A stretch of 64,000 nt of DNA from Bacteroidales bacterium (GTDB lineage Bacteria > Bacteroidota > Bacteroidia > Bacteroidales > JAADJA01): NCBI GenBank assembly GCA_020052415.1, contig JAGVPB010000038.1, positions 3,693-67,692 of the forward strand. The letters are read 5' to 3'. This document shows, one piece after another, positions 27,808-59,295 of this stretch (the first letter of the stretch is position 1; each line of letters opens with the position of its first letter). The notes beneath the pieces were generated by a model. That model was not told the origin of the DNA. It searched no databases and saw only the letters and a list, made by a program, of their open reading frames with translations. A program made the translations under genes and the position numbers.

Positions 27808-27963
27808 TTATATGCTTCTTCTCCCCCGGATAACCTGAAATAATATTGCAATAATTGCAATAACAAGAAGTATATGTATAATGCCACCGGCACTATATGC
27901 GAAAAATCCGACCGCCCATCCTATAATAAGAATTACTGCGATGATATAAAGTAAACTTGACAT
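27808..27963 (-). CDS. lmo0937-family small membrane protein (51 aa)
   Basis: The ATG at 27963 gives MSSLLYIIAVILIIGWAVGFFAYSAGGIIHILLVIAIIAILFQVIRGRRSI. The longer ORF-track start at 28089 would run through the promoter module. Confidence 0.7.
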   Translation of the reverse strand: MSSLLYIIAVILIIGWAVGFFAYSAGGIIHILLVIAIIAILFQVIRGRRSI

Positions 27964-28025
27964 GACTGTATATTTTTTAAGTTCCCCGCATCCTGCGGGC
28001 AGGTGTAATTTTACAATTACATGAG

Positions 28026-28094
28026 CAAAGGTCAGTCTTTTGAATCGCGAAAGCGTTACACAATTATTGAAAAGAGTTACATTATTCACACATT
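28026..28094 (-). promoter_or_regulatory. Stress-island promoter/operator module, copy A
   Basis: Plus-strand read: CAAAGG at 28026, GTTACACAATT at 28055, GTTACATTATTCACACATT at 28076-28094. It lies 63 nt upstream of the ATG at 27963. Confidence 0.7.
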
Positions 28095-28296
28095 TGAGAT
28101 CATTACCCGGAGACCATTGAAGCCATTAACGAATTTTCAAATAATAACAATTTGAAATATAGTTTGGTTCAAGACCATAAAATATTCCGTGTGTGAGATT
28201 ATGAGAGCAATTGGTAAATATTGAAAATCCCGATCAGCCGGTATAAATGTTCGATTTCGAAAATGATCTGCTTAATCATCATTAATGTAGTATAAT

Positions 28297-28326
28297 AACT
28301 AACCCCGCGAATTCGCAGGGTTAGTT
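28297..28326. terminator. 15-bp-arm palindrome 3' of the OMP gene
   Basis: AACTAACCCCGCGAA/TTCGCAGGGTTAGTT with one mismatch, followed by TTTTAAAAAA. Confidence 0.55.
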
Positions 28327-28394
28327 TTAAAAAAGTGATTCGAAAATATACATAGTACCGTCAGCCTTTTTTGACAGACGGATGTTGATTCGGC

Positions 28395-29165
28395 TTATCG
28401 AAGTGCCGTACTTGCAGGTGTTTTGAAAAGGAAGCTGGAATTTGCCAACCTGGATTTATTTCTAAGCGGTCCTCCTTTAAAAGTATTTATATAATAACTT
28501 ACACCAACACTGATATAGGTATAAAAATCGTAATCGTTATTTTTTACATAATCATCCAGCCGGTCAGTCTGGCACCGTCTCAATGCAAGGTCGGCTGTGA
28601 CACCAAAATTAGAATTCAATTTATAATATATTCCGCCTCCAAAGAAATAAACAAACTCTGGTTTAGCTGCGTCCTGTTCAAAGTTTTTATATGGTCCTTC
28701 GTTCATTACCACTTTTGTAGTACTGTAATAAAACTGTCCTGCACCTGCATAACCGACCACGCCAAAGGCATGGTACGTATCTAACATAAAAAGGTCAACA
28801 AAATCAATACGGGCATGAATGTTATATTCAAACATTTTCGTGGTAAAAGAAATATCACCATTGTTTCCTTCAAGGTTTCCGGTAATCACCTGGCCGGAAA
28901 TGCCAATAGTCTCTCTGAAGATATATTTGGAAATAATAATACTCATAGCCAGCCCGCTTTCCTGGTTGAGTTTAGCGCTAATATCGGCATCGCTGAGACT
29001 TAAATCGCCAAAGTAAGATGCCAGGCCACCGTTAATATTTACCGACCATTTGGTCAGTATAACAGGGTGACTATCTCCACCCCATTTCTGAGTATAGCAT
29101 GAGGTCGAAATGAAAATTCCGACGATCAGGTTGCTCAGGGCTATTCGGAAAATTTTTGTTTTCAT
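28395..29165 (-). CDS. Outer-membrane beta-barrel protein (OmpW/porin-fold, unknown specificity)
   Basis: Signal peptide and an alternating hydrophobic pattern with aromatic girdle residues (YFGD, YAGAGQFYY, GGGIYYKL). Confidence 0.55.
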   Translation of the reverse strand: MKTKIFRIALSNLIVGIFISTSCYTQKWGGDSHPVILTKWSVNINGGLASYFGDLSLSDADISAKLNQESGLAMSIIISKYIFRETIGISGQVITGNLEGNNGDISFTTKMFEYNIHARIDFVDLFMLDTYHAFGVVGYAGAGQFYYSTTKVVMNEGPYKNFEQDAAKPEFVYFFGGGIYYKLNSNFGVTADLALRRCQTDRLDDYVKNNDYDFYTYISVGVSYYINTFKGGPLRNKSRLANSSFLFKTPASTALR

Positions 29166-29336
29166 AGCCTGAATGTTTTAATGGTTTTACAAATACAGAT
29201 TTTTAGCATTAAAAAGGCATAGTTCAATAGTATAATTTTCATGATCTGTTTATTAATAATAAGTGATTTTAAAAGTACCGTTTCACAGGCCTTCCTCCAA
29301 ACGCTCCAAACGGTGCCTGTTACAAAAAGCAGACGA

Positions 29337-29522
29337 TTAAAGCATTGCTATAATCCTGTTCATTTCTTCCTTTGATTTACCAAGCTTGATCTGGAGTCTT
29401 CCAAACATCTGTTCCTGCCGGCCTTCTTCAAACGACAGGTCATAGTTCGTTAAATTTGCAAAATCCTTCAGCAGTTTTGCTTTTTGCTTATTCCAGTTCC
29501 CTTTTGCTTCCCTTGTGTTCAT
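29337..29522 (-). CDS. csbD: CsbD-family stress protein (61 aa)
   Basis: The ATG at 29522 gives MNTREAKGNWNKQKAKLLKDFANLTNYDL...GRLQIKLGKSKEE. It is a paralog of 35457..35642. Confidence 0.8.
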   Translation of the reverse strand: MNTREAKGNWNKQKAKLLKDFANLTNYDLSFEEGRQEQMFGRLQIKLGKSKEEMNRIIAML

Positions 29523-29559
29523 TTTTTTTAATTTTATTTGTAAATAAATTTTTACGATG

Positions 29560-29628
29560 TAAAGGTATGTCACTCAATTCCGAAAAGCATTACACAATTA
29601 AATAAAAGAGTTACATCATTCGCACATT
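29560..29628 (-). promoter_or_regulatory. Stress-island promoter/operator module, copy B
   Basis: TAAAGG at 29560, ATTACACAATT at 29589, GTTACATCATTCGCACATT at 29610-29628. It lies 38 nt upstream of the ATG at 29522. Confidence 0.7.
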
Positions 29629-29732
29629 TTTTATATCTTTTGCAGTTGCAAAAATCAGGATTAATATACTAATTTATAAATCTGCAGTTTCAATCCCAAC
29701 TGCATACCACCAGATGTATTGAGGAGGTAAAC

Positions 29733-29770: not shown

Positions 29771-29869
29771 TCAGGCGAACAGGAGTAATAGAAGCAAGCC
29801 TAAAAATTGTGAGTAAAATAATATTTTCATGATGAATGCTTCATCTTTTTCAAATTGTTTTGTTTCCAT
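29771..29869 (-). CDS. Unannotated 32-aa small hydrophobic-tail peptide
   Basis: It is not in the ORF track because it is under 60 aa. My translation is METKQFEKDEAFIMKILFYSQFLGLLLLLLFA. The ATG is 37 nt downstream of module copy C and a hairpin follows the stop. Confidence 0.5.
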   Translation of the reverse strand: METKQFEKDEAFIMKILFYSQFLGLLLLLLFA

Positions 29870-29905
29870 TGTTTTTAAATTACCAATTAATAAAATAATA
29901 GGATA

Positions 29906-29974
29906 TAAAGGTGATTCTATTTATTCCGGAAAGTATTACACAATTTAAGATAAGAGTTACATGATTCACACTTT
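29906..29974 (-). promoter_or_regulatory. Stress-island promoter/operator module, copy C
   Basis: TAAAGG at 29906, ATTACACAATT at 29935, GTTACATGATTCACACTTT at 29956-29974. Confidence 0.65.
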
Positions 29975-30008
29975 ATGAATTGAAAACCAGGGAGTGAAAG
30001 CAAGGTAT

Positions 30009-31850
30009 TTACTGATATCCTACAGGTGCAGGTTTTCCAATTACAAAATCCCTGAATCCGAAATCGGTTGTTTTAAATGAATTGACTTTGAAAATATCCT
30101 GCCCTATCCCTGGTATTATGGGATAAAATGCAATGGATATTTCAAAGGTGTTCACTATAAGGTAATCATTTTTAATTAAAACACCCAACCCTATTTGCGA
30201 ATATATCGTGCTGTTATTAAAACCTGTTCCTGCATCGCCTACCATGCCTAATGAGCAAACAAGGTAGGGACCAAAACGGAATCCGATAAAATTCCACGGG
30301 GCGTATGATTGTGTTTGAAGCCTGAAAATCCAGCGGCTGGTACCGGTTAGCGTAGGACTATTAAAGCCATCTATTCCGTTTCCGTCGTTAAGTGTTAAAC
30401 TTTCGTAGGTTAGCCGGTTTAAACCGATATCAAACTGTGTTTTTACAAACTGCCTGAATTTCCATTTCCCGATCTCAAACAGTCCTGTAAAATAATTAAC
30501 GCCTGCTATTAAAACCCCCTTTTCAGCATGGGAATCATTAAAAATAGATCCGTATTCGAAGTTGGAAGTCAGGTATCCCCACGGAAAATAATGTCCCAAT
30601 GAAATACGGCCTCCAAAATATAATTGTCCCTGATTATTTTTTTCCAGGTAGCCTCCTGTCAGGCTGTAAATTTTTCCAATTGGCACATCTTCAGTGATTC
30701 CAAACTGAAAAATATATTTGTCCTGTACATATTTTCGTCTGGATATTCCAACGCTTGCCAGGTAAAAATTATCGTTGGAAAACACATGGAGGGTGTCAAT
30801 GAGTTCAATTGGTTTTTCGAGAAAGCGGATTCGCATAAAACGAACAGCAGAAATGAAGTTGGTTGTCCGGTCCTTTTCGGTATTACCTTTAAATATTCGA
30901 AAGGCATGGCCAGCCCAATAATCTTGTGAATTGAATTTAAATCTTTGAAGAATAATAAGTGAATCTGTTGTTTGAATGGAATCAGTGCGAAATTGCTGGG
31001 TAAAATTTACACCACCGGCCCACTTTGCAAAGGGAGAAAAAAACGGACGGTCAATAGACAAACTTTTGGTAAAATTTCCGAATTCATCATTGCCATAAAT
31101 GATGGTAGTATTAATATACGTATTGCGAATGTTGGGAATAAAGTATTTTGTATTGTAAGCATCATCTCCGGTGTTGGGATACCAGGTGTAGGCATTTTTA
31201 AATTCGTGTCCAAATCCCAGAAAATTTTTGTCGGTTAATTTTATTGTGGCCTGGGATGCAGACACTGTCACAACGGGCAAAATGCTCCAATTATCCAATT
31301 CGCGGATAAAAATATCCACCGAGTCAGAGTTTTTTGAAACGGCTTTCACGAAAAATGAAACATCCCGTACATAAGGCTGGTTACGTACCAGTCGTTCTGA
31401 TTCTTTAACTAGCAACGAATCGAAAGGTTGATTTTGACGGATAACCAATAGGTTCCGAATGGTGATCGGCTGGGATTTTATATGAAACTTATTACCGGTT
31501 CTTATAAGAAAGTTTCGCGATGAAATCATTGTATCGCCAATTGTATAGCCAAAGGGATCCATCGTTTCGATGTTTATTTGCCGGATAATTTTCCCTTCGA
31601 AAGTGCTGTATGGTTTTTGAATCAGCTTTTTATAAACTTTCTTTTTACCATCTTTCTTTTTTATAGCGGGGGCAACCGGTTTAAAAAACAGCCCATACAT
31701 AAACTTCGTGAATTTGCTCCGTTTGGAATAAGCTTCAATGTTCTCATAAAGACGGGTAGAATCTGTTTTAACAGCAGGTTGTTGCGCAAATGCAATATCA
31801 TAAGTTAAGACCGAAACAAATAAAAGTATGAAAATATTTTTGAATCCCAT
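30009..31850 (-). CDS. Large outer-membrane protein, possibly Omp85/BamA-TamA-like
   Basis: Signal peptide, a POTRA-like N-terminal segment (GKIIRQINIETMDPFG) and a long beta-rich C-terminus. The family call is uncertain. Confidence 0.45.
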   Translation of the reverse strand: MGFKNIFILLFVSVLTYDIAFAQQPAVKTDSTRLYENIEAYSKRSKFTKFMYGLFFKPVAPAIKKKDGKKKVYKKLIQKPYSTFEGKIIRQINIETMDPFGYTIGDTMISSRNFLIRTGNKFHIKSQPITIRNLLVIRQNQPFDSLLVKESERLVRNQPYVRDVSFFVKAVSKNSDSVDIFIRELDNWSILPVVTVSASQATIKLTDKNFLGFGHEFKNAYTWYPNTGDDAYNTKYFIPNIRNTYINTTIIYGNDEFGNFTKSLSIDRPFFSPFAKWAGGVNFTQQFRTDSIQTTDSLIILQRFKFNSQDYWAGHAFRIFKGNTEKDRTTNFISAVRFMRIRFLEKPIELIDTLHVFSNDNFYLASVGISRRKYVQDKYIFQFGITEDVPIGKIYSLTGGYLEKNNQGQLYFGGRISLGHYFPWGYLTSNFEYGSIFNDSHAEKGVLIAGVNYFTGLFEIGKWKFRQFVKTQFDIGLNRLTYESLTLNDGNGIDGFNSPTLTGTSRWIFRLQTQSYAPWNFIGFRFGPYLVCSLGMVGDAGTGFNNSTIYSQIGLGVLIKNDYLIVNTFEISIAFYPIIPGIGQDIFKVNSFKTTDFGFRDFVIGKPAPVGYQ

Positions 31851-31906
31851 GTGCTCTGAGCTGTATTGATTTTAACAATAGTCATTTTATAACCTTATTT
31901 ATTATT

Positions 31907-32716
31907 TCACAGGGCAGAAATGAAATTGGATATATGCTGATTAAATTCGTCGGGTTGTTCAAGATTCGATAAATGACCTGCTTTATCTATGCTGTATAAC
32001 CTTGAATTTAAAATGTTGCATTGTAAAAACTGAGCCTGATCCGGTGGCGTGATGGTATCTTCTTTTCCACACAGGATTAAGGAAGGAACTTTAATATCCT
32101 TAAGAGAAGAACACATTTCCCGGCGCTGAGCAATTGCAATTAGTGTCCCTGTAATTGTTTTCGTATCCGTTGATAGAATGACATTTTTTATTTTTTCAAC
32201 CAGGTCATTTTTATCATTCAAAGTTTCTTCACAAAAAATATTTTTGACAAAACCTTTGACAAAGTCTTCTAATCCGCCTGCCTCTATTTGCTGAATTGTA
32301 GTATAGCGCTTCTCTTTTGCCGCGTCCGAATCGGCAATACATTGGGTATCACTTAAAATGATGGCTTCAAATCTTTCCGGATAACGGCTTATAGCATTCA
32401 ATAAAATATATCCTCCCATTGACAGGCCGCAAACAATAGCTTTGTTTATCTGCAATGCATCTAAAAGATTAATTAAATCATCAGCAAATAAACTAATGCT
32501 CACTTCTTCTGTACCTGCAGTTGATTTTCCAAAGCCACGGATATCATAGGCAATAACACGGTGTGTCCTTCTGAAAAAGTCAAGTTGAGGTTGCCACATT
32601 GATTTGTCAAAAGGAAATCCGTGAATGAATAATATGGGTAAATGACCAATTCCCTGATCATCATAACTAAGGACTACCCCATTGACCTGAAATGTTTTAT
32701 CTTTTATGACTAACAT
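31907..32716 (-). CDS. Alpha/beta hydrolase
   Basis: HGFPFDKSMW, the nucleophile elbow GLSMGG, and a C-terminal GHLSNLEQP histidine region. Confidence 0.8.
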   Translation of the reverse strand: MLVIKDKTFQVNGVVLSYDDQGIGHLPILFIHGFPFDKSMWQPQLDFFRRTHRVIAYDIRGFGKSTAGTEEVSISLFADDLINLLDALQINKAIVCGLSMGGYILLNAISRYPERFEAIILSDTQCIADSDAAKEKRYTTIQQIEAGGLEDFVKGFVKNIFCEETLNDKNDLVEKIKNVILSTDTKTITGTLIAIAQRREMCSSLKDIKVPSLILCGKEDTITPPDQAQFLQCNILNSRLYSIDKAGHLSNLEQPDEFNQHISNFISAL

Positions 32717-32746
32717 AAATTATGTTTTTACCTGGTATTGAACTGA

Positions 32747-33691
32747 TTATTTCTTTTCTGTTTTATTTTCTTTATCCTTTGCTGCTGCTGTCTCTGCTTC
32801 TGCTTTTAATTTTTTATTATAATATCCTCTGAAAAATATATTGTGTTTGAGCGCTTCCATATTCTCATCCAAACCTTTTGTGCTGCTGTTCAGGTTTTGC
32901 ATGGTCTGGCTCAAATTTGTCGCAATGGTCGTATCCTGGATAATCTTTGTAAATGTTCCATTTTCATCATTTACCTTTAGCATTATTTCTTCAAGCTGTT
33001 GCGAAAACACTTCAGCATTACCTGTTGTTACTTTAAGGCTGCCCGTAATGGAAGATACATCCTGCCGGACTGCCCCCATAGTTTCATCTAATCCAATAGA
33101 TGTTTCTTTCAGATTCTCAATGGTCTCATATAGATTTTTCGCTATGGTTGAGTCATGGATTAATCTGCCAAGCGTGCCTTTACCGCTGTTTATTTTAATC
33201 ATAACCTCTGCGAGTTCCTGGGTAATGATTTCAGCATTACTTGCAGTTCCCTGTAAACTTGCCATGATGGCATCCGTCTCAATCGGCTCCACAGATGAAA
33301 TTTCCTGCCCTTCCTTTGCTGGTGCAGCATCGGAGCTACCCTGTGTGATAACCAATAGCCGGTCGCCTATAAGACCTTCTGAACCTATGGCCACGACACA
33401 GTCCGATTTGATAAACTGCTTAACATCTTTCTTAATCAGCATTTCAACCCTTACCATTGAATCATTGATAATATTGATATTGTCAACAGTGCCAACATTA
33501 ATTCCAGTGAACCGGATATTATTTCCAACCTGTAATCCGCTTACGTTATAGAATGTAGCAGTTAGCTTAAAAACAGGATTGAATAAATTTTTTTGTTTTC
33601 CGATGATAAATATGGCAATAACAAAAAGCGCTAATCCTCCTGCAACAAACAACCCTAACCGTATTTTAAATTTTTGTGTGTGCGTTTCCAT
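32747..33691 (-). CDS. mlaD: MlaD/MCE-family substrate-binding protein
   Basis: N-terminal TM, the MCE block VSGLQVGNNIRFTGINVGTVDNI, and a long helical repeat tail. Confidence 0.75.
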   Translation of the reverse strand: METHTQKFKIRLGLFVAGGLALFVIAIFIIGKQKNLFNPVFKLTATFYNVSGLQVGNNIRFTGINVGTVDNINIINDSMVRVEMLIKKDVKQFIKSDCVVAIGSEGLIGDRLLVITQGSSDAAPAKEGQEISSVEPIETDAIMASLQGTASNAEIITQELAEVMIKINSGKGTLGRLIHDSTIAKNLYETIENLKETSIGLDETMGAVRQDVSSITGSLKVTTGNAEVFSQQLEEIMLKVNDENGTFTKIIQDTTIATNLSQTMQNLNSSTKGLDENMEALKHNIFFRGYYNKKLKAEAETAAAKDKENKTEKK

Positions 33692-33734
33692 GGCTAATAG
33701 TGAACTTTTAATATTTAATTTTGAATTATTGATT

Positions 33735-34517
33735 TCATTTGAAAAAAGAATTAATTAATGGATCGGTTGATTCTTTAAATTCCTCAACTTTTCCTTCTTT
33801 GTACACCTCACCATCCTCTAACATGATAATCCTGTTTGCTGTGGTAAGGGCGCATTTAATATCATGGGTGATGATGATGGAAGAAGTTTTATACTTTTTC
33901 TGAACATCATTGATCAGGGCGCTTATTTCATCTGAAGTAACCGGGTCAAGCCCGGTAGTAGGTTCGTCGTACAGAATGATCATCGGATCCACAACAATGG
34001 TACGTGCCAGGCTTATTCGTTTTCGCATGCCACCCGAAAGTTGTGAGGGCATTTTATGCAGTGCATCAGCGAGACCGACATTTTCCAAAACTTCGTTTAT
34101 TTTTTCTTTAATCTCTTTTTCAGTACGTTTCTTTTTTACTCTTCGCAATGGAAATTCCAGGTTCTGTTTCACCGTCATGGAATCATACAATGCACCGCTT
34201 TGAAAAAGGAAACCTATTTTAAGTCTCAACTCACCCAATTCTTTTCTTTTTAACTGAGGCACATTTTTATCAAACACTTTAATTGTTCCGCCATCAGCAC
34301 TTAACAGGCCAACAATGCACTTTATTAAAACAGATTTGCCGGTGCCGGATTTACCAACCACCGCCAAATTTTCGCCTTTATAAAGATTTAGAGAAACATT
34401 CCTTAGTACCTCCTGGTTTCCAAATGCTTTCCTGAGATTATTTATTTCAATAACCGGTTCCTTGCTGTTCGAAATAACAGTGGCGTTCTTTATTGTATCT
34501 GTTTGAGTCGTGTTCAT
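33735..34517 (-). CDS. mlaF: ABC transporter ATP-binding protein (MlaF-like)
   Basis: Walker A GKSGTGKS, signature LSGGMRKR and Walker B ILYDEPTTGLD. Confidence 0.85.
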   Translation of the reverse strand: MNTTQTDTIKNATVISNSKEPVIEINNLRKAFGNQEVLRNVSLNLYKGENLAVVGKSGTGKSVLIKCIVGLLSADGGTIKVFDKNVPQLKRKELGELRLKIGFLFQSGALYDSMTVKQNLEFPLRRVKKKRTEKEIKEKINEVLENVGLADALHKMPSQLSGGMRKRISLARTIVVDPMIILYDEPTTGLDPVTSDEISALINDVQKKYKTSSIIITHDIKCALTTANRIIMLEDGEVYKEGKVEEFKESTDPLINSFFK

Positions 34518-35368
34518 GATATCAGCATATCGGTTATTTGTACTGCAATCATATCAACAATGATCACGAGGAGCGAGGCCAACACTACAGCGGAATTTGC
34601 AGCAATGCCTACGCTTTCTGTCCCGCGCCCGGCATGGTATCCTTTATAGCAACCCACTATTCCGATTACTGCCCCGAAAAAAAAGGTTTTTATGACAGCA
34701 GGAATAAAATCTATAAACTCTACAGGGCTGAATGCCTGTGAGAAAAACAGGGTAAATGTTACATCTCCTTTAATATTCGCACCCGCCCAGCTCCCTAATA
34801 TACCAAGTCCATCGGCATATAAAACCAATAACGGGATCATAAGTGTCGCGGCTAACACTCTTGTTACAACTAAAAACCGTATAGGATTGGTGGAAGATAC
34901 TTCCATGGCATCTATCTGTTCGGTCACTTTCATGGAACCTAACTCTGCTCCCATGCCAGAACCAATTTTCCCTGCGCATATCAGCGCTGTAATAACAGGG
35001 CCCATTTCCCTAATGAGAGATATTGCCACCATTCCAGGAAGCATCGTCACTGCTCCGAAATCAACTAATACCGGCCGGGATTGAATGGTAAGCACCAAAC
35101 CCATGATGGTACCTGTGATTGATATTAGCGGTAAGGATTTATATCCGATTTGAAAACACTGACGCAAAAATTCTTTAAATTCAAAATTGCGTGAAAATGT
35201 TTCCCGGAAAATCCGCATGATAAATAAAAAAACATCAGCAAACTCAGTTAAAAAATTGCTTGCTTGTTCAGTTTTTACCAAGGTCTTTTCGCTAAGCCTG
35301 CTCAATGATTGTGCAGTAGCATGCCGAACCTTCGGGATTACCTTAATGACAGGAATGAATTTTTTCAT
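34514..35368 (-). CDS. mlaE: ABC transporter permease (MlaE-like)
   Basis: Typical MlaE layout (FLRQCFQIGYKSLPLISITG..., MKVTEQIDAMEV). There is a 4-bp overlap with the ATPase gene. Confidence 0.8.
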   Translation of the reverse strand: MKKFIPVIKVIPKVRHATAQSLSRLSEKTLVKTEQASNFLTEFADVFLFIMRIFRETFSRNFEFKEFLRQCFQIGYKSLPLISITGTIMGLVLTIQSRPVLVDFGAVTMLPGMVAISLIREMGPVITALICAGKIGSGMGAELGSMKVTEQIDAMEVSSTNPIRFLVVTRVLAATLMIPLLVLYADGLGILGSWAGANIKGDVTFTLFFSQAFSPVEFIDFIPAVIKTFFFGAVIGIVGCYKGYHAGRGTESVGIAANSAVVLASLLVIIVDMIAVQITDMLIS

Positions 35369-35642: not shown

Positions 35643-35699
35643 TTTTTTGAGATTTAATTCCTGCGACTGGCAGGACAGGTGTGAAATTTTTTCACCTTA

Positions 35700-35768: not shown

Positions 35769-35813
35769 AAAGTGTAATTTGCTGCTTCTTTGATTTAACA
35801 ACTTGTGAATTTT

Positions 35814-38526: not shown

Positions 38527-38532
38527 CAGGTA

Positions 38533-51259: not shown

Positions 51260-51269
51260 TGACTTGTTT

Positions 51270-52001: not shown

Positions 52002-52017
52002 AAAACAGCCAGCTGGT

Positions 52018-52056
52018 AATAAGTAAGGTTTCGTGTGGTCGAGGTACGAGACCCAA
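52018..52056. repeat. 39-bp direct repeat, copy 1
   Basis: AATAAGTAAGGTTTCGTGTGGTCGAGGTACGAGACCCAA matches 52618-52656 at 36/39, exactly 600 bp apart. Confidence 0.85.
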
Positions 52057-52126
52057 CATGAAGCTGTGTTGCACGAAAACCCGCCTTGGGAGTGCTCTGT
52101 GGAACGTTAGTTGCAAATTTTAAAGA

Positions 52127-52603
52127 ATGAAAAAACAATTGATTATAATATTACTTACAGTCTTTAGTATTCATATTAATGGACAAGAACCGGATTCGAG
52201 GAATTTTGATTCAATATTTATCCAACTTGATGAAGTAGGTGGATGTATAGCAAGAGTTGAAAGCCATTATTATTTTGAAATAAAGAAGAAAAAAGGATAC
52301 TTGAAAATAATTAGGAATAATGAGACATTGGAGACAAAATTAAAAAAAGAAGAGATTGATAAATTCCTTCCTGAATTTTTTGCTTATAATACAACAAAAA
52401 TGAAAGACTTTTATGAAATTAAAGATTCATGTTACATTCCAACTGGAGATTTTAGCGGTACGATAACATTAAAAATTCATAATAAGGACAATAAAACCGA
52501 AAAAGAGATAAAATTTAAATCAATAGTATGCTCAGACCTGGAATTCATCAAATTTAGAAATTGGATTATTTCCACAGCATCCTATATGAGTCAAATAGAA
52601 TAA
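52127..52603 (+). CDS. Secreted hypothetical protein (158 aa), cassette-like
   Basis: Signal peptide MKKQLIIILLTVFSIHINGQ. The ORF is tightly bracketed by the inverted repeat TTAGTTGCAAATTTT (52107-52121) and AAAATCTGCAACTAA (52605-52619). Confidence 0.55.
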   Translation: MKKQLIIILLTVFSIHINGQEPDSRNFDSIFIQLDEVGGCIARVESHYYFEIKKKKGYLKIIRNNETLETKLKKEEIDKFLPEFFAYNTTKMKDFYEIKDSCYIPTGDFSGTITLKIHNKDNKTEKEIKFKSIVCSDLEFIKFRNWIISTASYMSQIE

Positions 52604-52858: not shown

Positions 52859-53290
52859 TTACATCCGCTCCATGTACCAGTTCAATTCCTTTTCTATTTT
52901 TTGGTAATGGAAAATAGTGGTGATGATTTTTTGCAGGCGCACGAAGGCGGTTTCACTTTTTACAACATAATCAAAAGCCTTGTGGTGCATACAGTTTACA
53001 GCCACTTCAATTTTATCCTGCTGCGATAACATCACAACGGGAATGTCAGGATTGAATGCTTTAATTTTGTCTAACACTTCTATTCCGTTCATCGCGTTCT
53101 TATCAATTCCAGCCAGAAAATAATCTAAAATGATCACATCAGGGTTGTGCGATAAATTTTTAACGCAAAGTTCGCCGGTTGCAAATGTTTCAATGGCTAA
53201 ATCTGCATGCTGTAGAAAATCAATTTCCAGTGACTTTAAAAATACAGCATCATCATCTACCAGGAAAAGTTTTATTTTTTGGTTGTTCAT
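52859..53290 (-). CDS. Single-domain response regulator (REC)
   Basis: LFLVDDD...VIILDYFLAG...PVVMLSQQD. There is a 4-bp overlap with the upstream kinase gene. Confidence 0.85.
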   Translation of the reverse strand: MNNQKIKLFLVDDDAVFLKSLEIDFLQHADLAIETFATGELCVKNLSHNPDVIILDYFLAGIDKNAMNGIEVLDKIKAFNPDIPVVMLSQQDKIEVAVNCMHHKAFDYVVKSETAFVRLQKIITTIFHYQKIEKELNWYMERM

Positions 53291-55956
53291 TCGTTCGTGG
53301 TTTTAAGCAAATTAAATTCTTCTTCCAATTCCGTACATGCCTGTTTACAAACGATTTCTACTTGCTGAACCATGTCGGATATTCCCTGTTTGCCCGATTG
53401 GTCGGCATTCGGTTGTTGCTGTTTGATCGCAAATTCCTGGATTGCTTTTGCCATGTTTTCAAAGTCTTTGCCGATACCCATGATTGAAAAAGAAGGTATC
53501 ATTTTGTGTACTGAAGCGTGCAATGAATTCCAATCTTTGTCGTGCATGCTTTGTTTCATTGCGCTAATTAACGGAGGGGTTTGCTCCAGATAAAGCGAAA
53601 TCATTTCCATCATCAATTCCGGATTCGACTTAGTAAGAACACTCAAATAATTCAGGTCAACGCGTTTTAATTTTTTATTCTGATTATGTCCATTCCCTTT
53701 ATCTGCATTATTTTTAATATGCACAGATTTTTTTACCACCCTGACCATTTTATGGTATAATAATCTTTCATCTATCGGCTTCGCGATGTAATCATTCATA
53801 CCAATAGCTTTACATTTTGCTAAATCTACGGTGGTCACATCTGCAGTTAAAGCAATGATTGGGATTTTGGAATTCATTTTATTACGAATGTATTCCGTAG
53901 CTTCAAACCCATTCATTTCGGGCATTTGCAAGTCCATCAAAATTACATCGTAAGAGTTGGATTGTAGTTTTTCGATGGCTATTTTTCCATTGGCGGCAAT
54001 ATCGCATTCAAATCCGAAATCATCCAACAGCGTTCTCATTAATAATTGATTAAGCGGAATGTCTTCAGCCACCAATACTTTTATGTTTTTGATTTCCGTA
54101 TCCAGTTCCACGAGCCCTGCTTCTGATTCAGCATCAGCATTTGTTTTCAGGAAACTTAAAATAAAACTAAAGGAAGAACCCTTTCCAGGTTTACTTTTTA
54201 CCCGAATACTTCCGCCCTGCGGTTCTACCAATTGTTTAACAATGGCCAGTCCCAATCCGGTTCCGCCATACAACCTTGAAGTGCCGCTGGATGCCTGCTG
54301 AAAGTTGTCAAAAATTTTTCCCATTTTTTCATCAGGTATTCCAATTCCGGTGTCAGTAACAGCAAATTCAATGGTTGCATTCTCTTCATCTTCATTCAGC
54401 AAACGAACACTTACAGTAATTTTTCCTTTTGATGTGAATTTTACTGCATTACTCACCAGATTTAAAATAATCTGGTGCAAACGCACCGGGTCGCCAACCA
54501 ATACTTCAGGAATTCTGTTGTCGTATTCTTTTACCAGTATTAAATTCTTTTCCTGAATTTTAGTCTCAAACAAATGAAGCATGGCTGCAATGGATAACTT
54601 CAATTTAAAAGGTATTTGTTCAAATATCATTTTTCCTGCTTCTACTTTTGCCAGATCAAGTATATCGTTAATGAGTACGATTAATGCATCGCCACTCATT
54701 TTTATTGCTGCCAAATATTCTTTTTGTTTTGCTGACAAATCTGTTTTCAACAGCACTTTTGTAAATCCGATAATCGCATTCATAGGGGTGCGAATTTCAT
54801 GACTCATGTTTGACAAAAATTGCTGTTTTGCTTTCACAGCGCTTTCTGCTATTCGTGTAGCATTTTCGGCTTTTATTTTTGCTTCTTCAGCAATTCCTGT
54901 TGCCAGCTCGGCAAATACTTTTGCCTCAATCAATTCGGTTGCGATTTTTTTTTGGTCGGTAATATCTCTTGCAACTATCACCACACCCAATACATTTCCT
55001 TTATCATCTTTATAAACCGATCCATTGCATAAGACATCGGTAAGCTTACCATCCATTATAGTTAGGGGATAATCTACCACAAACCCTTTTGCAAAAACCT
55101 GTTGATAACTTTCGCGTGCTTTGTCGGGGTGAGTAAAATAATTAAAAAAATCTGTGCCTATTATTTTCTCACGTGATACTCCTGTTACTTTTACTGTTGC
55201 TTCATTCATATCGGTGATTTTTCCTTCAGGGCTAATCGTAAACAACGGGTCGCGGCTCGCTTCTATCAGGCTGAGAGAATATTGAGAAGCTAATTTTGCT
55301 GAATAGCTTAATGCCTCAAGTTCTTTATTTGTAATTTCCCGTTTTTCTTTCTCCTTGTTTTGAAAGGCAAGTTCTATGTCAGCGATGACCAACTCTGCGG
55401 CACGTTTTTCTTTCTCTCCTGTTTGAAATATAAGTTCTTTGTTAGCAATAAATAACTCTGCTGCACGCTTTTCTTTCTCATCGTTTTGAAATGCAAGTTC
55501 TTTGTTGGCAATGATTAACTCTGCTGCACGTTTTTCTTTCTCATCGTTTTGAAATGCAAGTTCTTTATTGGCAATTCGTAACTCTGTCGCCCCTTTTTGA
55601 TCGGCAATGCTTCTTGCAACTACAACGGCGCCAAGCACATTTCCCTTTTCACCTTTATAAACTGAGCCGTTAAATAACACATTTGTCAGCTTACCATCCA
55701 TTATGGTTAATGGAATATTTTTTACAAATCCTTTTGCAAATACTTCCTGATATACTTCACGTGCTTTTTGCGGTTCGGTAAAATAAATACCGAAATCGGA
55801 ACCTATCAGATTTTTACGTGTAATATCTGTAATTTCAATAAATGCCTGATTCATGTCAGTAATCCTGCCTTCAGCACTAATTGTGACCAGGGGATCCAGG
55901 CTTGCTTCTATCAAACTTCTGGCGTAATTTGAATCATGTGAATTTGTCCTATCCAT
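53287..55956 (-). CDS. Hybrid sensor histidine kinase (2x PAS with coiled-coil repeat linker - HisKA - HATPase_c - REC - HPt)
   Basis: It has two PAS modules and a 21-aa repeat ELIIANKELAFQNDEKEKRAA present about 4 times. Kinase motifs are FLSNMSHEIRTPMNAI and GGTGLGLAIVK. The receiver shows VLVAEDIPLNQ...ILMDLQMPEMNG, and the C-terminal HPt shows LHASVHKMIPSFSIMG. Confidence 0.9.
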   Translation of the reverse strand: MDRTNSHDSNYARSLIEASLDPLVTISAEGRITDMNQAFIEITDITRKNLIGSDFGIYFTEPQKAREVYQEVFAKGFVKNIPLTIMDGKLTNVLFNGSVYKGEKGNVLGAVVVARSIADQKGATELRIANKELAFQNDEKEKRAAELIIANKELAFQNDEKEKRAAELFIANKELIFQTGEKEKRAAELVIADIELAFQNKEKEKREITNKELEALSYSAKLASQYSLSLIEASRDPLFTISPEGKITDMNEATVKVTGVSREKIIGTDFFNYFTHPDKARESYQQVFAKGFVVDYPLTIMDGKLTDVLCNGSVYKDDKGNVLGVVIVARDITDQKKIATELIEAKVFAELATGIAEEAKIKAENATRIAESAVKAKQQFLSNMSHEIRTPMNAIIGFTKVLLKTDLSAKQKEYLAAIKMSGDALIVLINDILDLAKVEAGKMIFEQIPFKLKLSIAAMLHLFETKIQEKNLILVKEYDNRIPEVLVGDPVRLHQIILNLVSNAVKFTSKGKITVSVRLLNEDEENATIEFAVTDTGIGIPDEKMGKIFDNFQQASSGTSRLYGGTGLGLAIVKQLVEPQGGSIRVKSKPGKGSSFSFILSFLKTNADAESEAGLVELDTEIKNIKVLVAEDIPLNQLLMRTLLDDFGFECDIAANGKIAIEKLQSNSYDVILMDLQMPEMNGFEATEYIRNKMNSKIPIIALTADVTTVDLAKCKAIGMNDYIAKPIDERLLYHKMVRVVKKSVHIKNNADKGNGHNQNKKLKRVDLNYLSVLTKSNPELMMEMISLYLEQTPPLISAMKQSMHDKDWNSLHASVHKMIPSFSIMGIGKDFENMAKAIQEFAIKQQQPNADQSGKQGISDMVQQVEIVCKQACTELEEEFNLLKTTNE
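55328..55590. repeat. 63-bp in-frame tandem repeat (about 4 units) inside the kinase gene
   Basis: Units start at 55391, 55454, 55517 and 55580 (AACTCTGCTGCACGTTTTTCTTTCTCATCGTTTTGAAATGCAAGTTCTTTGTTGGCAATGATT). Confidence 0.85.
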
Positions 55957-55986: not shown

Positions 55987-56559
55987 TTAAATCATATTGC
56001 CAATTTCTTCAATCGGACTTCGCCTTTTTTTTTTTAATTTTTTAAAATGAGAAGGTGAGAGTCCGGTAACTTTTTTAAATTGATTGGATAAATGCGCAAC
56101 ACTGTTGTAATTCATCTTCCAGGCGATCCCCGTAATACTTAATTCGTCGTAAATGATCAATTCTTTTATCCGCTCTACTTTATGATGAATAATAAATTGC
56201 TCAATGGTGGTTCCTTGTACTTCCGAAAACAGGTTTGCCAGGTAGGTATAATCGTATTTCAATTTTTCACTTAAAAAATCAGAAAAATTTATTTTAATCA
56301 TTTTATCAGAATGGTGAACCATTTCGATAATTGTATTTTTTATTCTTTCAATCAATACAGCTCTCCTGTTGTTTATTAATTCAAAACCTGATTTGAGCAA
56401 CGCAATATTAAGTTGCTCCAGCTTTTCACCCGAGAGGTTTTCCATGATCTCAACTTCACCCATATCAACAATGATAAAATGCAGTCCAAGTTTTTTCAAC
56501 TCTTCCCGAACCGCCATTTTGCAGCGATTGCTCACCATGTATTTGATGTGCAACTTCAA
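55987..56559 (-). CDS. AraC/XylS-family transcriptional regulator with a small ferredoxin-like (HMA-like) N-terminal domain, paralog 1
   Basis: The N-terminus MKLHIKYMVSNRCKMAVREELKKLGL is a beta-alpha-beta-like module. The C-terminal double HTH is YTYLANLFSEVQGTTIEQFIIHHKVERIKELI...ITGIAWKMNYNSVAHLSNQFKKVTGLSPSHF. Confidence 0.8.
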   Translation of the reverse strand: MKLHIKYMVSNRCKMAVREELKKLGLHFIIVDMGEVEIMENLSGEKLEQLNIALLKSGFELINNRRAVLIERIKNTIIEMVHHSDKMIKINFSDFLSEKLKYDYTYLANLFSEVQGTTIEQFIIHHKVERIKELIIYDELSITGIAWKMNYNSVAHLSNQFKKVTGLSPSHFKKLKKKRRSPIEEIGNMI

Positions 56560-56587
56560 ATAATTTCTATTTTATAAAAGTTATGGA

Positions 56588-56656
56588 CAAAGGTGTATGC
56601 CTTTGACTGGAAATAAGTAATTTAATTAAAAATAAAAGTCACATAATACACACATT
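56588..56656 (-). promoter_or_regulatory. Stress-island promoter/operator module, copy L (degenerate proximal repeat)
   Basis: CAAAGG at 56588, GTAATTTAATT at 56617, GTCACATAATACACACATT at 56638-56656. It lies 29 nt upstream of the ATG at 56559. Confidence 0.6.
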
Positions 56657-56694
56657 TAAGCTTAGCAAATCCGGAACTTCCATGCCATGCAGGT

Positions 56695-57033
56695 TTATTC
56701 ATAGCCGCTTTTTATCACGGTCTGTAACATTTTAAACCGCCCGTTTGGCTTTACATAATTGGATGCATGGGCCGGTATTACAATTGATTGTCCCGTCAGC
56801 AGGAAATTGGATATTCCGTTGATTACGATTTCCGCTTTGCCGTCAATAATTTGAACAAAGGTATCGAAGGCCGTGGTTTTTTCGCTTAACCCTTCACCGC
56901 TGTCAAACGATATGACGCTGACATTTCCGGTTGACTTTTTTAATATCGTTTTGATGACCACTGAGTTTGCTATATATTCAATAATTTCAACTGTAATGTG
57001 CGCTTTTGCCTTTTCAAGTTCTAAATTTTCCAT
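56695..57033 (-). CDS. Cupin domain protein
   Basis: A 112-aa ORF. VISFDSGEGLSEKTTAFDTFVQIIDGKAEIVINGISNFLLTGQSIVIPA fits the cupin beta-barrel pattern. Confidence 0.65.
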   Translation of the reverse strand: MENLELEKAKAHITVEIIEYIANSVVIKTILKKSTGNVSVISFDSGEGLSEKTTAFDTFVQIIDGKAEIVINGISNFLLTGQSIVIPAHASNYVKPNGRFKMLQTVIKSGYE

Positions 57034-57120
57034 CTTGTAAGGTCTTTAATAAATTAAACTTTAATGATAAATATCAAAGCCTGGTTGTCAACCAGACTTT
57101 GATTAAGTTGGCAATTAAGC

Positions 57121-57318
57121 CTACTTCTTGTTATTGAGGGTAAAATCCTTCAGTGCTTTTCCAAGGGCATCCATATCATGGCTGAATTCAGTCTTGAAAG
57201 ATGTCCATTTGTCTGGTCCTTCATCTTTATAATCTGCCAGTTTATTTTTCAGAACGATGTTTTTTTGTTCCAGGTCATTGACCATTTTCTGCCTGGATGT
57301 TCTGTCTGCAGCTTCCAT
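57121..57318 (-). CDS. Small charged helical protein (65 aa)
   Basis: It is the first ORF after module copy M. No family recognised. Confidence 0.5.
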   Translation of the reverse strand: MEAADRTSRQKMVNDLEQKNIVLKNKLADYKDEGPDKWTSFKTEFSHDMDALGKALKDFTLNNKK

Positions 57319-57346
57319 TTTCGATATATCTGCTTTTATTTACATA

Positions 57347-57415
57347 CAAAGGTGCGTTCCTTTCGAAGGGAAATCGTTACATAATTCCGGAATTATGTTA
57401 CATCATTCACACATT
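57347..57415 (-). promoter_or_regulatory. Stress-island promoter/operator module, copy M
   Basis: CAAAGG at 57347, GTTACATAATT at 57376, GTTACATCATTCACACATT at 57397-57415. It lies 29 nt upstream of the ATG at 57318. Confidence 0.7.
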
Positions 57416-57591
57416 TTCGAGGGTGTTTCGTCTTTTATGCTTAAGCTGCTTGAAACAGGCGGGCGATAAACACGTAAGTTCTGAAAAAAGATTGGCTAAA
57501 CAGGTGTAGTCGTAGCTGAGCTTCCCCATGAGGTAATCGGAAAAATATAATTTGCGCACTACATCTTCAATTTATTTTTTTTCAGGTTTTG

Positions 57592-59295
57592 TTACTTCTT
57601 TTGTTTTTGATCCTTTTTGTCCTGTCTCTCTAATTTTTTGTTTTTATTTGCGATGGGTGTCACAATGGAAATGATGCCGGTTTTGAGACTATTCCAAAGG
57701 TAATTTATGATAAATTTATCCTTTCTCCGTTCAAAATGAATCATCCCTGTTGTATAATTGTTGTCACCGGGAAGATTCTTATTGTTAATTAATATATTAG
57801 CGCCTGCTGATAATCCTCCTGACTTTTTATCCGGATCATTTTGCTTTGAAACATCAACCCTGAGATTTTCATAGATCAAAGTAAGTTCTCCGTCCGATAC
57901 ATCATCCGTTGCTTTGAATCTGAATTTTGCCTGTTTTATATCGCCTGAAGTTATGGTAACCGGCAATAAACCTTCCAGCATTGGATTGAATTCAGCAGCA
58001 GCAACAGGATCAAGCGTACCGGCAACAGTGAAGTATTCGTCATTCCTTTCCAGGAAGAAAATCAGATGGGCGTTCAGGTCGCTCTTACCCATTATTTTTC
58101 CACTGAAATCCATTTCGAGATTGGATTTATTTTCTGTTGTCACCAAATCATTGGTAATATTGTAGGCTGTCAAATTGAAAGGATTAAAGAAAACTTTACC
58201 TGGCTTATCTGCACCTTCAATCATTTCGCCGTAAGCTAATTTCCCATTTTTAATCTTTACAGTATCGGTGATAAATTTTCGGGAAACTTTATTTAAGCCA
58301 CCTGTGATCAATACTTTGTGTTTGAAAGGCGCATCAGGTAATCTTTTATCACGATAGATATCAACATCGGGCTTTTCAATGCGGATGCAGTTAAAATGAA
58401 TCGCATTTCCGGCAGCAAGTTCATTTGCGTTGATTCCCATAACTATAATGCTGTCAACGGATATTGAAAACAAATCAGTATTATATTTGATTTGCCTGTT
58501 AAATTCTTCTTTGCTGTACTTTGGGATAAGTTTAAATTGTTCGATAGTTAAAGAGCTATCCTGAACATCAAACCGGATACCGGAAGTCGAAAGGGTGTAA
58601 TATTTTAGGGGGGTGTAGGTGATATAACGGCTATTCATATCAATGGCTGTAAAAGTAAGCGGAACCGTTTGCTGTATGGTTGCGGAATCTACTCTGATAT
58701 TTTCAACGGCAACCGATAAAGAATCAATTATAAATAGCGGTTCCTCAGGTTTCTCAACGCTATAATAAGTTAAACCAGCCGTCAGGATTTCAAAATAATT
58801 TACATTGATCGAATAGATCTTGCCCGGGATAACCTGTTCAAGATTACCGGATAAATTTCTATCAGCGGGCTTTGCCATTGGGTTGGATAAATAGGTGATC
58901 ATGATATTCTCAACTACAATTCTATCCATGATCATCCTTTTTGTTTTAAGAAATTCCACAATTTTAAATTCTGTAACCCGAAGCAATTCCGTTTTGGCCG
59001 AAATCAAACCTCTGATGGCAGCATTTTCAAGCAGGACTTTTGCAGTGTCGCGCGGGGTAATGGTCAGATTATCAATTTTAACCCTACCAATGAATATATT
59101 CAAATCTATATCATCAAAAATGATTTCATACAATCGTTTTGGATTTTTATTTAATTCCGCACTGATTTTGTGCTTTATGTAAGGTTCAAGAATGAATGTT
59201 AATCCTGTAAAAGCCACAAGACCTATTACAAATATTGTAATCAGGAATGTTTTAAATCTTTTCCCGGCTTTTGATTTCTTCTTCTTACGAGCCAT
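57592..59295 (-). CDS. Large N-terminally anchored envelope protein (AsmA/DUF748-like)
   Basis: A basic N-terminus and a single TM (FLITIFVIGLVAFTGLTFIL), followed by a long beta-rich region and a basic tail. The family call is of low certainty. Confidence 0.5.
   Translation of the reverse strand: MARKKKKSKAGKRFKTFLITIFVIGLVAFTGLTFILEPYIKHKISAELNKNPKRLYEIIFDDIDLNIFIGRVKIDNLTITPRDTAKVLLENAAIRGLISAKTELLRVTEFKIVEFLKTKRMIMDRIVVENIMITYLSNPMAKPADRNLSGNLEQVIPGKIYSINVNYFEILTAGLTYYSVEKPEEPLFIIDSLSVAVENIRVDSATIQQTVPLTFTAIDMNSRYITYTPLKYYTLSTSGIRFDVQDSSLTIEQFKLIPKYSKEEFNRQIKYNTDLFSISVDSIIVMGINANELAAGNAIHFNCIRIEKPDVDIYRDKRLPDAPFKHKVLITGGLNKVSRKFITDTVKIKNGKLAYGEMIEGADKPGKVFFNPFNLTAYNITNDLVTTENKSNLEMDFSGKIMGKSDLNAHLIFFLERNDEYFTVAGTLDPVAAAEFNPMLEGLLPVTITSGDIKQAKFRFKATDDVSDGELTLIYENLRVDVSKQNDPDKKSGGLSAGANILINNKNLPGDNNYTTGMIHFERRKDKFIINYLWNSLKTGIISIVTPIANKNKKLERQDKKDQKQKK

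Follow-up and report, generated by a model that had tools for sequence, protein, structure and literature searches.

A conserved promoter-like module heading stress-type operons in Bacteroidota, and its linkage to a pair of AraC-type regulators

Introduction

Bacteroidota rank among the dominant bacteria of gut, soil, sediment and marine systems, and the switch by which they turn on broad protection is poorly understood. To our knowledge they possess neither RpoS nor SigB, and a master regulator for a general stress response is not known to us from this phylum. A stretch of 64,000 nucleotides (nt) from a Bacteroidales bacterium (assembly GCA_020052415.1, contig JAGVPB010000038.1, positions 3,693–67,692 of the forward strand; this whole stretch is called the window below) raises the question of what could take their place. 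Here, operons encoding protein families familiar from the SigB and RpoS regulons are headed by copies of one short intergenic module. A preliminary description of the window, made from its letters alone, had proposed that these genes form a general stress regulon under one operator, concentrated in about 30 kb. What kind of signal is the module, which protein reads it, and what kind of response stands behind it?

As a whole, the data are on balance best explained by a protective regulon resembling a general stress response, transcribed from the modules as sigma-A promoters and driven by a pair of AraC-type proteins, named AraC186 and AraC183 here. Full-text searches of openly accessible literature yielded no description of the module motif, of its candidate regulator, of the N-terminal domain architecture of this regulator, of the phylum-wide regulon, or of a general stress regulator of Bacteroidota, and no expression data for these genes in the phylum; literal motif strings retrieved unrelated primers only, and PMC13440311 contains no relevant terms. 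The outcome agrees with the earlier statement that no general stress regulator has been defined for the phylum. Among labelled ORFs of the 200 module or AraC loci described below, no gene of an alternative sigma factor was seen linked to the module.

Sequences and searches

A profile hidden Markov model (HMM; nhmmer) was built from the module copies of the window and rerun on stretches of other genomes. A pattern-seeded set of at least 120 stretches was obtained by scanning a genome collection with a module pattern of 21 specified bases, with the -7 box outside the pattern. A protein-seeded set consists of 80 metagenome loci picked by the AraC186 protein alone, to remove the bias of selection by the module. 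Retrieved stretches are 8–20 kb each, and counts are given per stretch rather than per genome. A position-frequency table was compiled from 194 ungapped module copies of other genomes, with positions numbered along the 78-position profile. Family calls derive from Pfam and NCBIfam HMM searches of the window proteins, and open reading frames (ORFs) in 200 module or AraC loci were labelled by homology to window proteins.

The module and its copies in the window

Across 28024–59403, the profile search detects 14 minus-strand copies of the module (about 72 nt), with E values from 4e-11 to 2e-20; outside the interval considered previously it adds a 15th, plus-strand copy at 9116–9186. Repeat finding returns a family of 12–14 copies of 56–79 nt, all in one orientation, across 28026–59409. 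A scan with the consensus TGTGTGAATnATGTAACTCTTTTnnnnAATTGTGTAA (33 specified bases, at most 3 mismatches) gives 10 matches in the window and none in 100 dinucleotide-preserving shuffles. The earlier claim of a shared module ahead of these units is borne out by this control and by the E values of the 14 copies. The concentration also holds, as 31.5 kb contain 14 copies and the other 32.5 kb of the window a single one, but the module is not confined to that block, given the 15th copy. All copies are co-directional with an ORF, whose ATG or TTG start lies 26–97 nt past a box resembling a -7 element. The copies found by the profile search, and the genes (lengths in amino acids, aa) that they head, are:

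28024–28097, minus: copy 1 (nhmmer E 8e-20, 0 mismatches to the consensus); lmo0937–YtxH–...–AI-2E–GH130–GT operon
29558–29630, minus: copy 2; CsbD (29337–29522) and a 256-aa beta-barrel-like protein (28395–29165)
29904–29976, minus: copy 3; only a 32-aa ORF (29771–29869)
35698–35769, minus: copy 4; CsbD (35457–35642), then MlaE, MlaF, MlaD, an alpha/beta hydrolase and a 613-aa protein (together 30009–35368)
37053–37125, minus: copy 5; 260-aa lipoprotein (36176–36958) and a 98-aa protein with a weak bPH_2 match (35814–36110)
38456–38527, minus: copy 6; YceI (37803–38414)
40565–40636, minus: copy 7; 64-aa acidic protein, CbpA-like DnaJ (39425–40327), CbpM-like MerR_2 (38965–39264) and a 125-aa protein (38533–38910)
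42427–42502, minus: copy 8; 176-aa secreted protein, 62-aa protein and alpha/beta hydrolase (together 40678–42380)
46191–46264, minus: copy 9; DUF6600 protein (44947–46158), PAS hybrid kinase (43127–44869) and Usp (42628–43113)
48286–48359, minus: copy 10; OmpA/TSP3 protein (46716–48260)
49543–49618, minus: copy 11; basic secreted 175-aa protein (48992–49519) and 61-aa membrane peptide (48667–48852)
56585–56658, minus: copy 12, the weakest of the 14 (nhmmer E 4e-11); AraC183–kinase–REC operon
57344–57419, minus: copy 13; 65-aa sll1863-like protein (57121–57318) and cupin-like 112-aa protein (56695–57033)
59329–59403, minus: copy 14; 567-aa membrane protein (57592–59295)
9116–9186, plus: copy 15 (nhmmer E 4e-8); secreted DUF4382 protein (9233–10042; Pfam)

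A partial module-like match at 23187–23225, inside a glycosyltransferase gene, has an E value of 0.033 and was taken as chance or as a remnant.

Anatomy of the module

In the 194-copy table, the conserved blocks are aaAtGTGTGAAT.ATGTAAc at positions 6–24, AaTT.TGTAAc at positions 35–45 and [T/C]A.cTTTg at positions 67–74, with A68, T71 and T72 kept in 98–99% of copies at fixed distance; the sequence between the blocks is free to vary. Positions 14–30 and 35–51 are direct repeats of each other (AAT..TGTAAc.cTTt), with 11–12 of 15 consensus positions in common. Two direct repeats (AATnnTGTAAC-CTTT) with a 21-bp period make up the module, together with the 5' extension AAATGTGTG and, at fixed spacing, the -7 box TAnCTTTG. 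The distal site, AAATGTGTGAAT-n-ATGTAAC-tcTTTT, lies at roughly -74 to -50, with an additional GTGTG some 10 bp upstream of TGTAA. Exactly 21 bp downstream, the proximal repeat AATTnTGTAAC-acTT covers the position of a would-be -33 box, and the table displays no TTTG at the canonical -33 spacing. The box [T/C]AnCTTTG follows 22 bp past the proximal TGTAAC and matches the -7 motif of Bacteroidota sigma-A, TAnnTTTG, in the consensus form cited by Ryan et al. (2020; PMC7366714). Scans for E. coli-type promoters and terminators gave counts at the shuffle level, as expected for Bacteroidota.

At araI1-I2 (AraC), Pm (XylS) and the sites of RhaS, a strong distal half-site is followed, at a comparable repeat period, by a weaker proximal half-site over the -35 region. 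The 194-copy table corresponds to this class II arrangement, with direct half-sites of about 21-bp period, the proximal one over the -35/-33 region, and no upstream hexamer. The module is almost certainly a real cis-regulatory promoter, and its layout indicates a complete activator-dependent promoter of the AraC/XylS type. What had been termed one operator is indeed one shared signature, but it appears better described as such a promoter, with two direct-repeat sites and a sigma-A -7 box.

Numerous 70–80-nt copies in intergenic DNA might also represent a dispersed selfish or structural element, similar to repetitive extragenic palindromes or miniature inverted-repeat transposable elements (REP/MITE-like), or a structured RNA, in either case without a part in transcription initiation. 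However, orientation and distance to the next gene are always fixed, terminal inverted repeats are lacking, the conserved blocks are direct and not inverted, and the module is kept before orthologous genes across orders. The Rfam scan of the whole window gave no match at gathering score, a permissive scan of 35600–37100 gave chance-level matches only, and RNAalifold returned an empty consensus structure for 60 module copies on both strands. The empty fold and the lack of an Rfam match thus indicate that the module is a DNA signal upstream of the transcript and not an RNA. A selfish or structural element appears already contradicted by these features, and we assign it next to no probability.

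Other readings of the motif were rejected as well. By inspection of the 194-copy table, the second half of a CRP/FNR-type palindrome in TGTGA-N6-TAACT does not equal TCACA, and no Crp or Fnr gene is linked. An extracytoplasmic function (ECF)-type -35/-10 reading has the wrong spacing, the downstream box being the sigma-A -7 box.

Directly after the -7 box, 45 of 302 modules carry a leader hairpin, GUGAAAAU-N3-4-UUCAC, as compared to less than 1 in shuffles. In the window it is found on the minus strand at 27976–28024, 35651–35699 and 37007–37055, and elsewhere in loci L062, L096, L052, L003, L034, L068 and L092. In about 15 of these leaders, ACCUGU and a second hairpin, CC(C)GCCAGnnGCGG(G), follow. 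Covariation is modest (double changes in 6 of 10 pairs), with no Rfam family match. The hairpin may act at the RNA level, as a stabilising or regulatory 5' element, or else be a palindromic operator at +1.

The AraC-type regulators and their linkage to the module

At its upstream end, the minus-strand cluster contains the following genes:

59391–59951, minus: AraC186, 186-aa AraC regulator with HMA-like domain (Pfam; AlphaFold2 model, pLDDT 90; Foldseek)
57407–57570, minus: remnant of an AraC186 paralog (by translation; repeat D15, 82% nucleotide identity with 59608–59703), ending ...LENV* with its stop inside module copy 13
55987–56559, minus: AraC183, AraC paralog of 190 aa counted from the TTG at 56559 (Pfam HTH_18; HMA-like N-domain and AraC DNA-binding domain)
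53287–55956, minus: hybrid histidine kinase PAS-PAS-HisKA-HATPase-REC-Hpt (HMM), with a single-domain REC protein (52859–53290) next in the operon

The first two of these, and the TTG start at 56559, had been overlooked in the preliminary description. Read along the minus strand, the order is AraC186–module–567-aa protein, then decayed AraC186 paralog–module–sll1863-like–cupin-like, then module–AraC183–kinase–REC. AraC186 has the same C-terminus, ...LENV*, and uses the TGA of GTGTGAAT in module copy 14 as its stop. The decayed paralog, with a 5' truncation and an internal deletion, is evidence of a past duplication of the regulator-module unit, as it ends inside a module too.

This overlap of stop and module recurs at the identical position in at least 12 pattern-seeded loci. 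In the protein-seeded set, a module lies within 60 nt of the AraC186 stop in 42 of 75 testable loci; in 34 of the 75, independent of each other, the stop falls at the identical position inside the module. Upstream of AraC186, a module was found in only 3 of 70 protein-seeded loci. A recurrent core, AraC186–module–cupin ... AraC186'–module–AraC183–hybrid kinase–REC, is present in L136, L141 and L176, and the order in the window agrees with this plan. A kinase follows the AraC183 orthologs in 15 of 17 loci. AraC183 begins at its TTG with MKLHIKYMVSNRCK..., and about 19 of 21 orthologs start with TTG or GTG; AraC186 mostly starts with ATG. The TTG start may limit translation of AraC183 as a feedback regulator.

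At least 8000 homologs of AraC186 were found. The best 120, including proteins of Emticicia (Cytophagales), Saprospiraceae and Bacteroidales, are 75–88% identical over their full length, a conservation across orders that parallels the near-invariant DNA motif; all are named just "AraC family transcriptional regulator", and NCBIfam holds no specific model for AraC186 or AraC183. Pfam HTH_18 matches the two proteins with 62.8 and 59.3 bits (HTH_AraC is matched also), and the two-HTH C-terminal domain of about 100 aa places them in the AraC/XylS family (Pfam, Foldseek).

The AlphaFold2 model of AraC186 begins with a beta-alpha-beta-beta-alpha-beta N-domain (residues 1–62), followed by a long helix and then by an AraC DNA-binding domain of canonical type. 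For the latter, Foldseek retrieves MarA, SoxS, Rob, AraC and AdpA (TM to target 0.7–0.8; E 2e-5 to 4e-3 for MarA, SoxS and Rob). The best PDB matches of the N-domain are the HMA metallochaperones TTHA1718, Atx1 and GolB (TM 0.63–0.70), and the PDB displays no full-length structural relative. Neither the model nor Foldseek reveals a classical N-terminal cupin domain for ligand binding and dimerisation in AraC186. Across 1420 clusters, the N-domain is confined to the N-terminus of proteins of about 186 aa. Its Cys13, which corresponds to the second Cys position of the HMA CxxC loop, is kept in 94% of 50 diverse representatives. AraC186 and AraC183 are 65% identical, and since their recognition helices are nearly identical, both should read the same DNA. 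Linkage and conservation together make it quite likely that the two proteins are the regulators of the module.

Alternatively, the reader of the module may be a different transcription factor or an alternative sigma factor, with the AraC genes as mere regulon members or conserved neighbours. AraC binding to the module is deduced from linkage, AraC183 is clearly a target, and the TGTAAC-like element could in principle be a -35 element for an ECF-type sigma factor. The downstream element, however, is a sigma-A -7 box standing 22 bp from TGTAAC, as compared to the usual 16–17 bp in ECF promoters. Among labelled genes in the 200 loci (ORFs without a window homolog carry no label), neither matches to the sole sigma-related protein of the window (18348–18944, weak Sigma70_r4_2) nor other sigma-like genes were found, and the sole other recurrent DNA-binding genes are CbpM-like MerR_2, always together with CbpA. 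In addition, the AraC186 stop sits at one fixed position inside the module in the 34 independent loci, and the motif and the AraC recognition helices show a matching, extreme degree of conservation. We hence regard a different reader as quite improbable.

Next to AraC186, a CheB-CheR-PAS fusion of 877 aa, followed by another PAS protein, is encoded divergently (59952–63305, plus); this neighbour of AraC186 is not conserved in other loci. The hybrid kinase of the AraC183 operon (889 aa) contains four tandem 63-nt (21-aa) repeats between its two PAS regions (55340–55586, minus); their copy number appears variable in relatives, as L103 aligns at several offsets.

Gene families behind the module

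The unit behind copy 1 is composed of:

27808–27963, minus: lmo0937-family/DUF5670 membrane peptide, 51 aa (Pfam DUF5670, 58 bits; NCBIfam lmo0937_fam_TM, 65 bits)
27411–27671, minus: YtxH-like protein, 86 aa (Pfam YtxH, 74 bits)
21771–27054, minus: rest of the unit, with a Holin-X-like membrane protein (26674–27054), a 132-aa protein, an AI-2E transporter (25161–26273), GH130 (24121–25164) and a GT4 glycosyltransferase (21771–24131) (Pfam, NCBIfam)

This gene string also follows modules in L134, L176, L200 and L153. CsbD at 35457–35642 scores 43.6 bits; the second CsbD (29337–29522) scores 26 bits against a cut-off of 40 and is a clear paralog of the first (repeat D9). YceI (147 bits), Usp (100 bits), MlaE, MlaF, MlaD and two alpha/beta hydrolases are confirmed, as are DUF6600, OmpA with TSP3, the stand-alone REC protein, AraC HTH_18 and two PAS-HisKA-HATPase-REC hybrid kinases. 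The CbpA-like protein (300 aa) combines DnaJ and DnaJ_C and has no zinc finger, and the adjoining MerR_2 protein is CbpM-like; the string acidic protein–CbpA–CbpM–125-aa protein recurs in L134. Orthologs of the 260-aa lipoprotein stand behind modules in 2 loci.

Other calls are weak. The 65-aa protein (57121–57318) matches the sll1863 stress-protein family with 27 bits (cut-off 35), the PH-like call has an E value of 0.008, the AsmA-like call for the 567-aa membrane protein is a DUF748 match of 22.7 bits (cut-off 50), and the supposed outer membrane barrel (28395–29165) is PorG-like with 27.6 bits only. No family match in Pfam or NCBIfam was obtained for the supposed large outer membrane protein (30009–31850), nor any for the cupin-like protein of the window, an ortholog of which matches Cupin_2 with 22 bits (cut-off 27). 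The 32-aa ORF behind copy 3 had no phmmer match in the 200 loci; it could represent a short transcript. HMM searches, which the preliminary description had proposed as a check, thus leave most of its stress-family assignments in place: lmo0937, YtxH, CsbD, MlaEFD, YceI, CbpA/CbpM-like, Usp, OmpA-TSP3, the hybrid kinases, REC and AraC stand, while the cupin, PH-like, AsmA-like and outer membrane protein calls are weak or unsupported.

Distribution in other genomes

The pattern-seeded stretches listed hold 217 profile matches, 168 of them full length. As with all 15 window copies, a co-directional ORF start lies within 220 nt for 211 of the 217. Among the stretches listed, the module spans five or more orders:

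Bacteroidales/Marinilabiliales: Prolixibacteraceae, Draconibacterium, Maribellus, Mariniphaga, Carboxylicivirga, Paludibacter, Rikenellaceae, Lentimicrobiaceae
Chitinophagales: Ferruginibacter, Segetibacter, Puia
Saprospirales: Saprospiraceae
Cytophagales: Emticicia, Arcicella, Roseivirgaceae
Flavobacteriales: Aequorivita, Lutibacter

One 3.7-kb contig with a module was binned as Syntrophales. Cultured carriers on which genetics could be done include Emticicia sp. C21, Ferruginibacter sp. SUN106, Maribellus maritimus 5E3, Maribellus sp. YY47 and Carboxylicivirga sp. RSCT41. Among the matches listed, the window's nearest relative is an uncultured Bacteroidales metagenome-assembled genome, with 85% nucleotide identity over the kinase operon.

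Homologs of the window proteins that stand directly behind a module number as follows, again among the stretches listed:

CsbD: 20 of 24
OmpA-TSP3: 14 of 20
cupin-like protein: 9 of 17 (in protein-seeded loci, 19 of 31)
lmo0937: 8 of 22, with 9 more inside module-headed operons
YtxH: 6 of 17, with 11 more inside module-headed operons
basic secreted protein: 5 of 6
AraC183: 6 of 10 (in protein-seeded loci, 7 of 12; together, 13 of 22)
DUF6600: 3 of 4

MlaEFD, CbpA/CbpM, YceI, Usp and AraC–kinase–REC are likewise found behind modules elsewhere, in both locus sets. Unsupervised clustering of the first ORFs behind modules gives the same family list and adds ice-binding-like type IX secretion (T9SS) proteins (13 modules in 10 loci), outer membrane beta-barrels, baeRF family 3, DUF305 and others. 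The protein-seeded loci contain 135 modules in 554 kb, with the same families behind them. Some module loci are 16–150 kb apart on one contig, and the signature therefore stays with the genes when they are dispersed. The comparison suggested earlier, of whether orthologous genes carry the module even when dispersed, is hence positive in both sets.

Which response do these families stand for? Hallmark stress proteins under one promoter signature, in the window as well as in other genomes, are what a general stress response would display. The same cis-element and regulators may instead serve a specific programme for water activity and the envelope (osmotic shock, drying, freezing), rather than multiple stresses or stationary phase. 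CsbD, YtxH (similar to late embryogenesis abundant proteins), the weak sll1863 match and the ice-binding-like T9SS proteins agree with such a programme, as do the envelope proteins MlaEFD, OmpA, beta-barrels and YceI, and the GH130 and GT4 pair with the AI-2E transporter that recurs behind modules. A 2653-aa protein with GT2 and GH94 is also encoded nearby in the window (8–7969, plus; the ORF starts at position 8, its upstream region lying outside the window). We take this architecture to be typical of cyclic beta-1,2-glucan synthases, which make an osmoregulated periplasmic glucan. On the other hand, there is nothing specific to water stress in CbpA/CbpM, Usp, the hydrolases, or the baeRF-like and signalling proteins; in Bacillus and E. 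coli the same families respond to many stresses, and nothing in the sequence identifies the signal. We consider this narrower programme unlikely, if of appreciable probability; that the response is general, rather than specific for water or the envelope, is itself close to an even call and slightly doubtful.

Other features of the window

The only plus-strand block of the cluster (49997–52603) encodes an AbiLi/AbiLii abortive-infection pair (PADLOC, 307 and 106 bits) and a 158-aa protein. With a GC content of about 30%, as compared to 37–39% around it, it has the appearance of an inserted defence island within the stress block. Six intergenic tandem arrays of 7-nt period (one of 9 nt) are located at 9050–9090, 14353–14507, 21572–21689, 37569–37614, 37702–37778 and 39281–39347. 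Their units differ (GATATTA x6, GTTCGGA x17, ACCAGCT x9, AGTGACTAA x7, and others), and they mostly lie just downstream of genes; one separates the CbpA-like from the CbpM-like gene, and one immediately precedes module copy 15. Two further gene pairs upstream of the stress block have no module: a LytS-type His_kinase with a LytTR response regulator (12568–14321, plus), and a hemerythrin-domain protein with a LuxR/GerE regulator (17656–18944, plus).

Discussion

In its mode of action, the system would work like class II activation by AraC/XylS proteins (AraC at araI1-I2, XylS at Pm, RhaS/RhaR, MelR) and like the paralogous activators MarA, SoxS and Rob of E. coli; in content, it resembles general stress responses. 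With the class II systems it shares two direct repeats of about 17 bp that are 21 bp apart, a strong distal and a weaker proximal site, the latter over the -35/-33 region with a poor upstream hexamer, and a C-terminal two-HTH AraC domain in the regulator. Unlike them, it has an HMA-like ferredoxin-fold N-domain of about 65 aa with a conserved Cys in place of the cupin domain for sugar binding and dimerisation, a Bacteroidota sigma-A -7 box, dozens of stress-type operons instead of one catabolic pathway, and a paralog pair with a kinase-REC operon.

MarA, SoxS and Rob are likewise small AraC-type activators of overlapping specificity with a dispersed protective regulon, one paralog being controlled mainly by its own synthesis, as module-driven AraC183 would be, and the DNA-binding domains superpose. 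However, the module is unrelated to the single 20-bp asymmetric marbox (AYnGCACnnWnnRYYAAAYn), there are two sites per promoter instead of one, and the extra N-terminal domain, the attached phosphorelay operon and the phylum-wide conservation are particular to the system described here.

SigB of Bacillus and Listeria, RpoS of E. coli and EcfG-NepR-PhyR of Alphaproteobacteria are comparable in content (CsbD, YtxH, lmo0937, CbpA/CbpM, Usp, YceI, OmpA-like), in the one promoter signature heading many small operons, and in the histidine kinase and receiver-domain proteins near the regulator, as with PhyR or RssB. Their defining alternative sigma factor is not found here among the labelled genes; activator sites and a housekeeping -7 box stand in its place, and induction by multiple stresses is predicted. 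Within Bacteroidota, the promoter motif PM2 of Bacteroides thetaiotaomicron is also non-canonical and stress-linked, being associated with oxidative stress genes and stationary phase (Ryan et al., 2020; PMC7366714). By the description given there, PM2 is near-palindromic with elements centred at -10 and -30, in contrast to the direct repeats of the module, which reach to about -75, and its -7 box.

Based on this dataset, we hypothesize that AraC186, made independently of the module, stands at the top of the system, where it would bind the repeats and recruit sigma-A polymerase. It would turn on the module-driven AraC183 and the phosphorelay partners, resulting in positive feedback or feed-forward amplification, which the weak TTG start of AraC183 would damp. 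The PAS hybrid kinase (HK-REC-Hpt) and the stand-alone REC protein may set AraC activity as a phosphorelay input, and the conserved Cys13 in the N-domain of AraC186 is a possible second input. Stress induction would activate about 15 promoters in the window, plus the same gene families across the phylum. The predicted output comprises small protective proteins (CsbD, YtxH, lmo0937, sll1863-like), CbpA/CbpM, Usp and the glycoside module, together with envelope proteins (OmpA-TSP3, beta-barrels, MlaEFD, YceI, DUF6600) and, elsewhere, ice-binding-like proteins.

Several points weigh against this model. The link between the AraC proteins and the module is associative, and the AraC genes could be neighbours or targets instead of regulators. 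In 33 of 75 AraC186-like loci no module stands right after the gene; some of these genes are paralogs, and some have a module 90–200 nt off. The proximal site does not carry the 5' GTGTG element, so that either a dimer or two monomers may bind, and the route from a REC-only protein to an AraC protein is pure conjecture. Because several products have no known function, the label of stress is partly guilt by association with families of the SigB and RpoS regulons, and the gene set fits a narrower water and envelope response equally well. Finally, the census of pattern-seeded stretches does not equal a genome-wide regulon, as these were picked by the module itself; the protein-seeded set agrees with the census.

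The cis-element is precise enough to scan any genome and to predict its regulon, and the candidate master regulator family and the linked kinase-REC input module provide further handles. This makes the question of a global stress response in Bacteroidota directly testable. If confirmed, the system would provide a physiological context for DUF5670, DUF6600, DUF4382, cupin-like, basic secreted and baeRF-like proteins, and a stress-inducible promoter for the engineering of Bacteroidota. It would also imply that a housekeeping sigma factor plus an activator can stand in for an alternative sigma factor in a global stress programme. More tentatively, we propose that the general stress or dormancy programme of Bacteroidota may consist of the housekeeping sigma factor, a phylum-wide AraC pair with HMA-like domains, the fixed 70-bp module and a hybrid-kinase/REC phosphorelay, possibly with the conserved Cys as a thiol or metal switch. 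If true, this would be a third architecture of the bacterial general stress response, beside alternative sigma factors and partner-switching systems.

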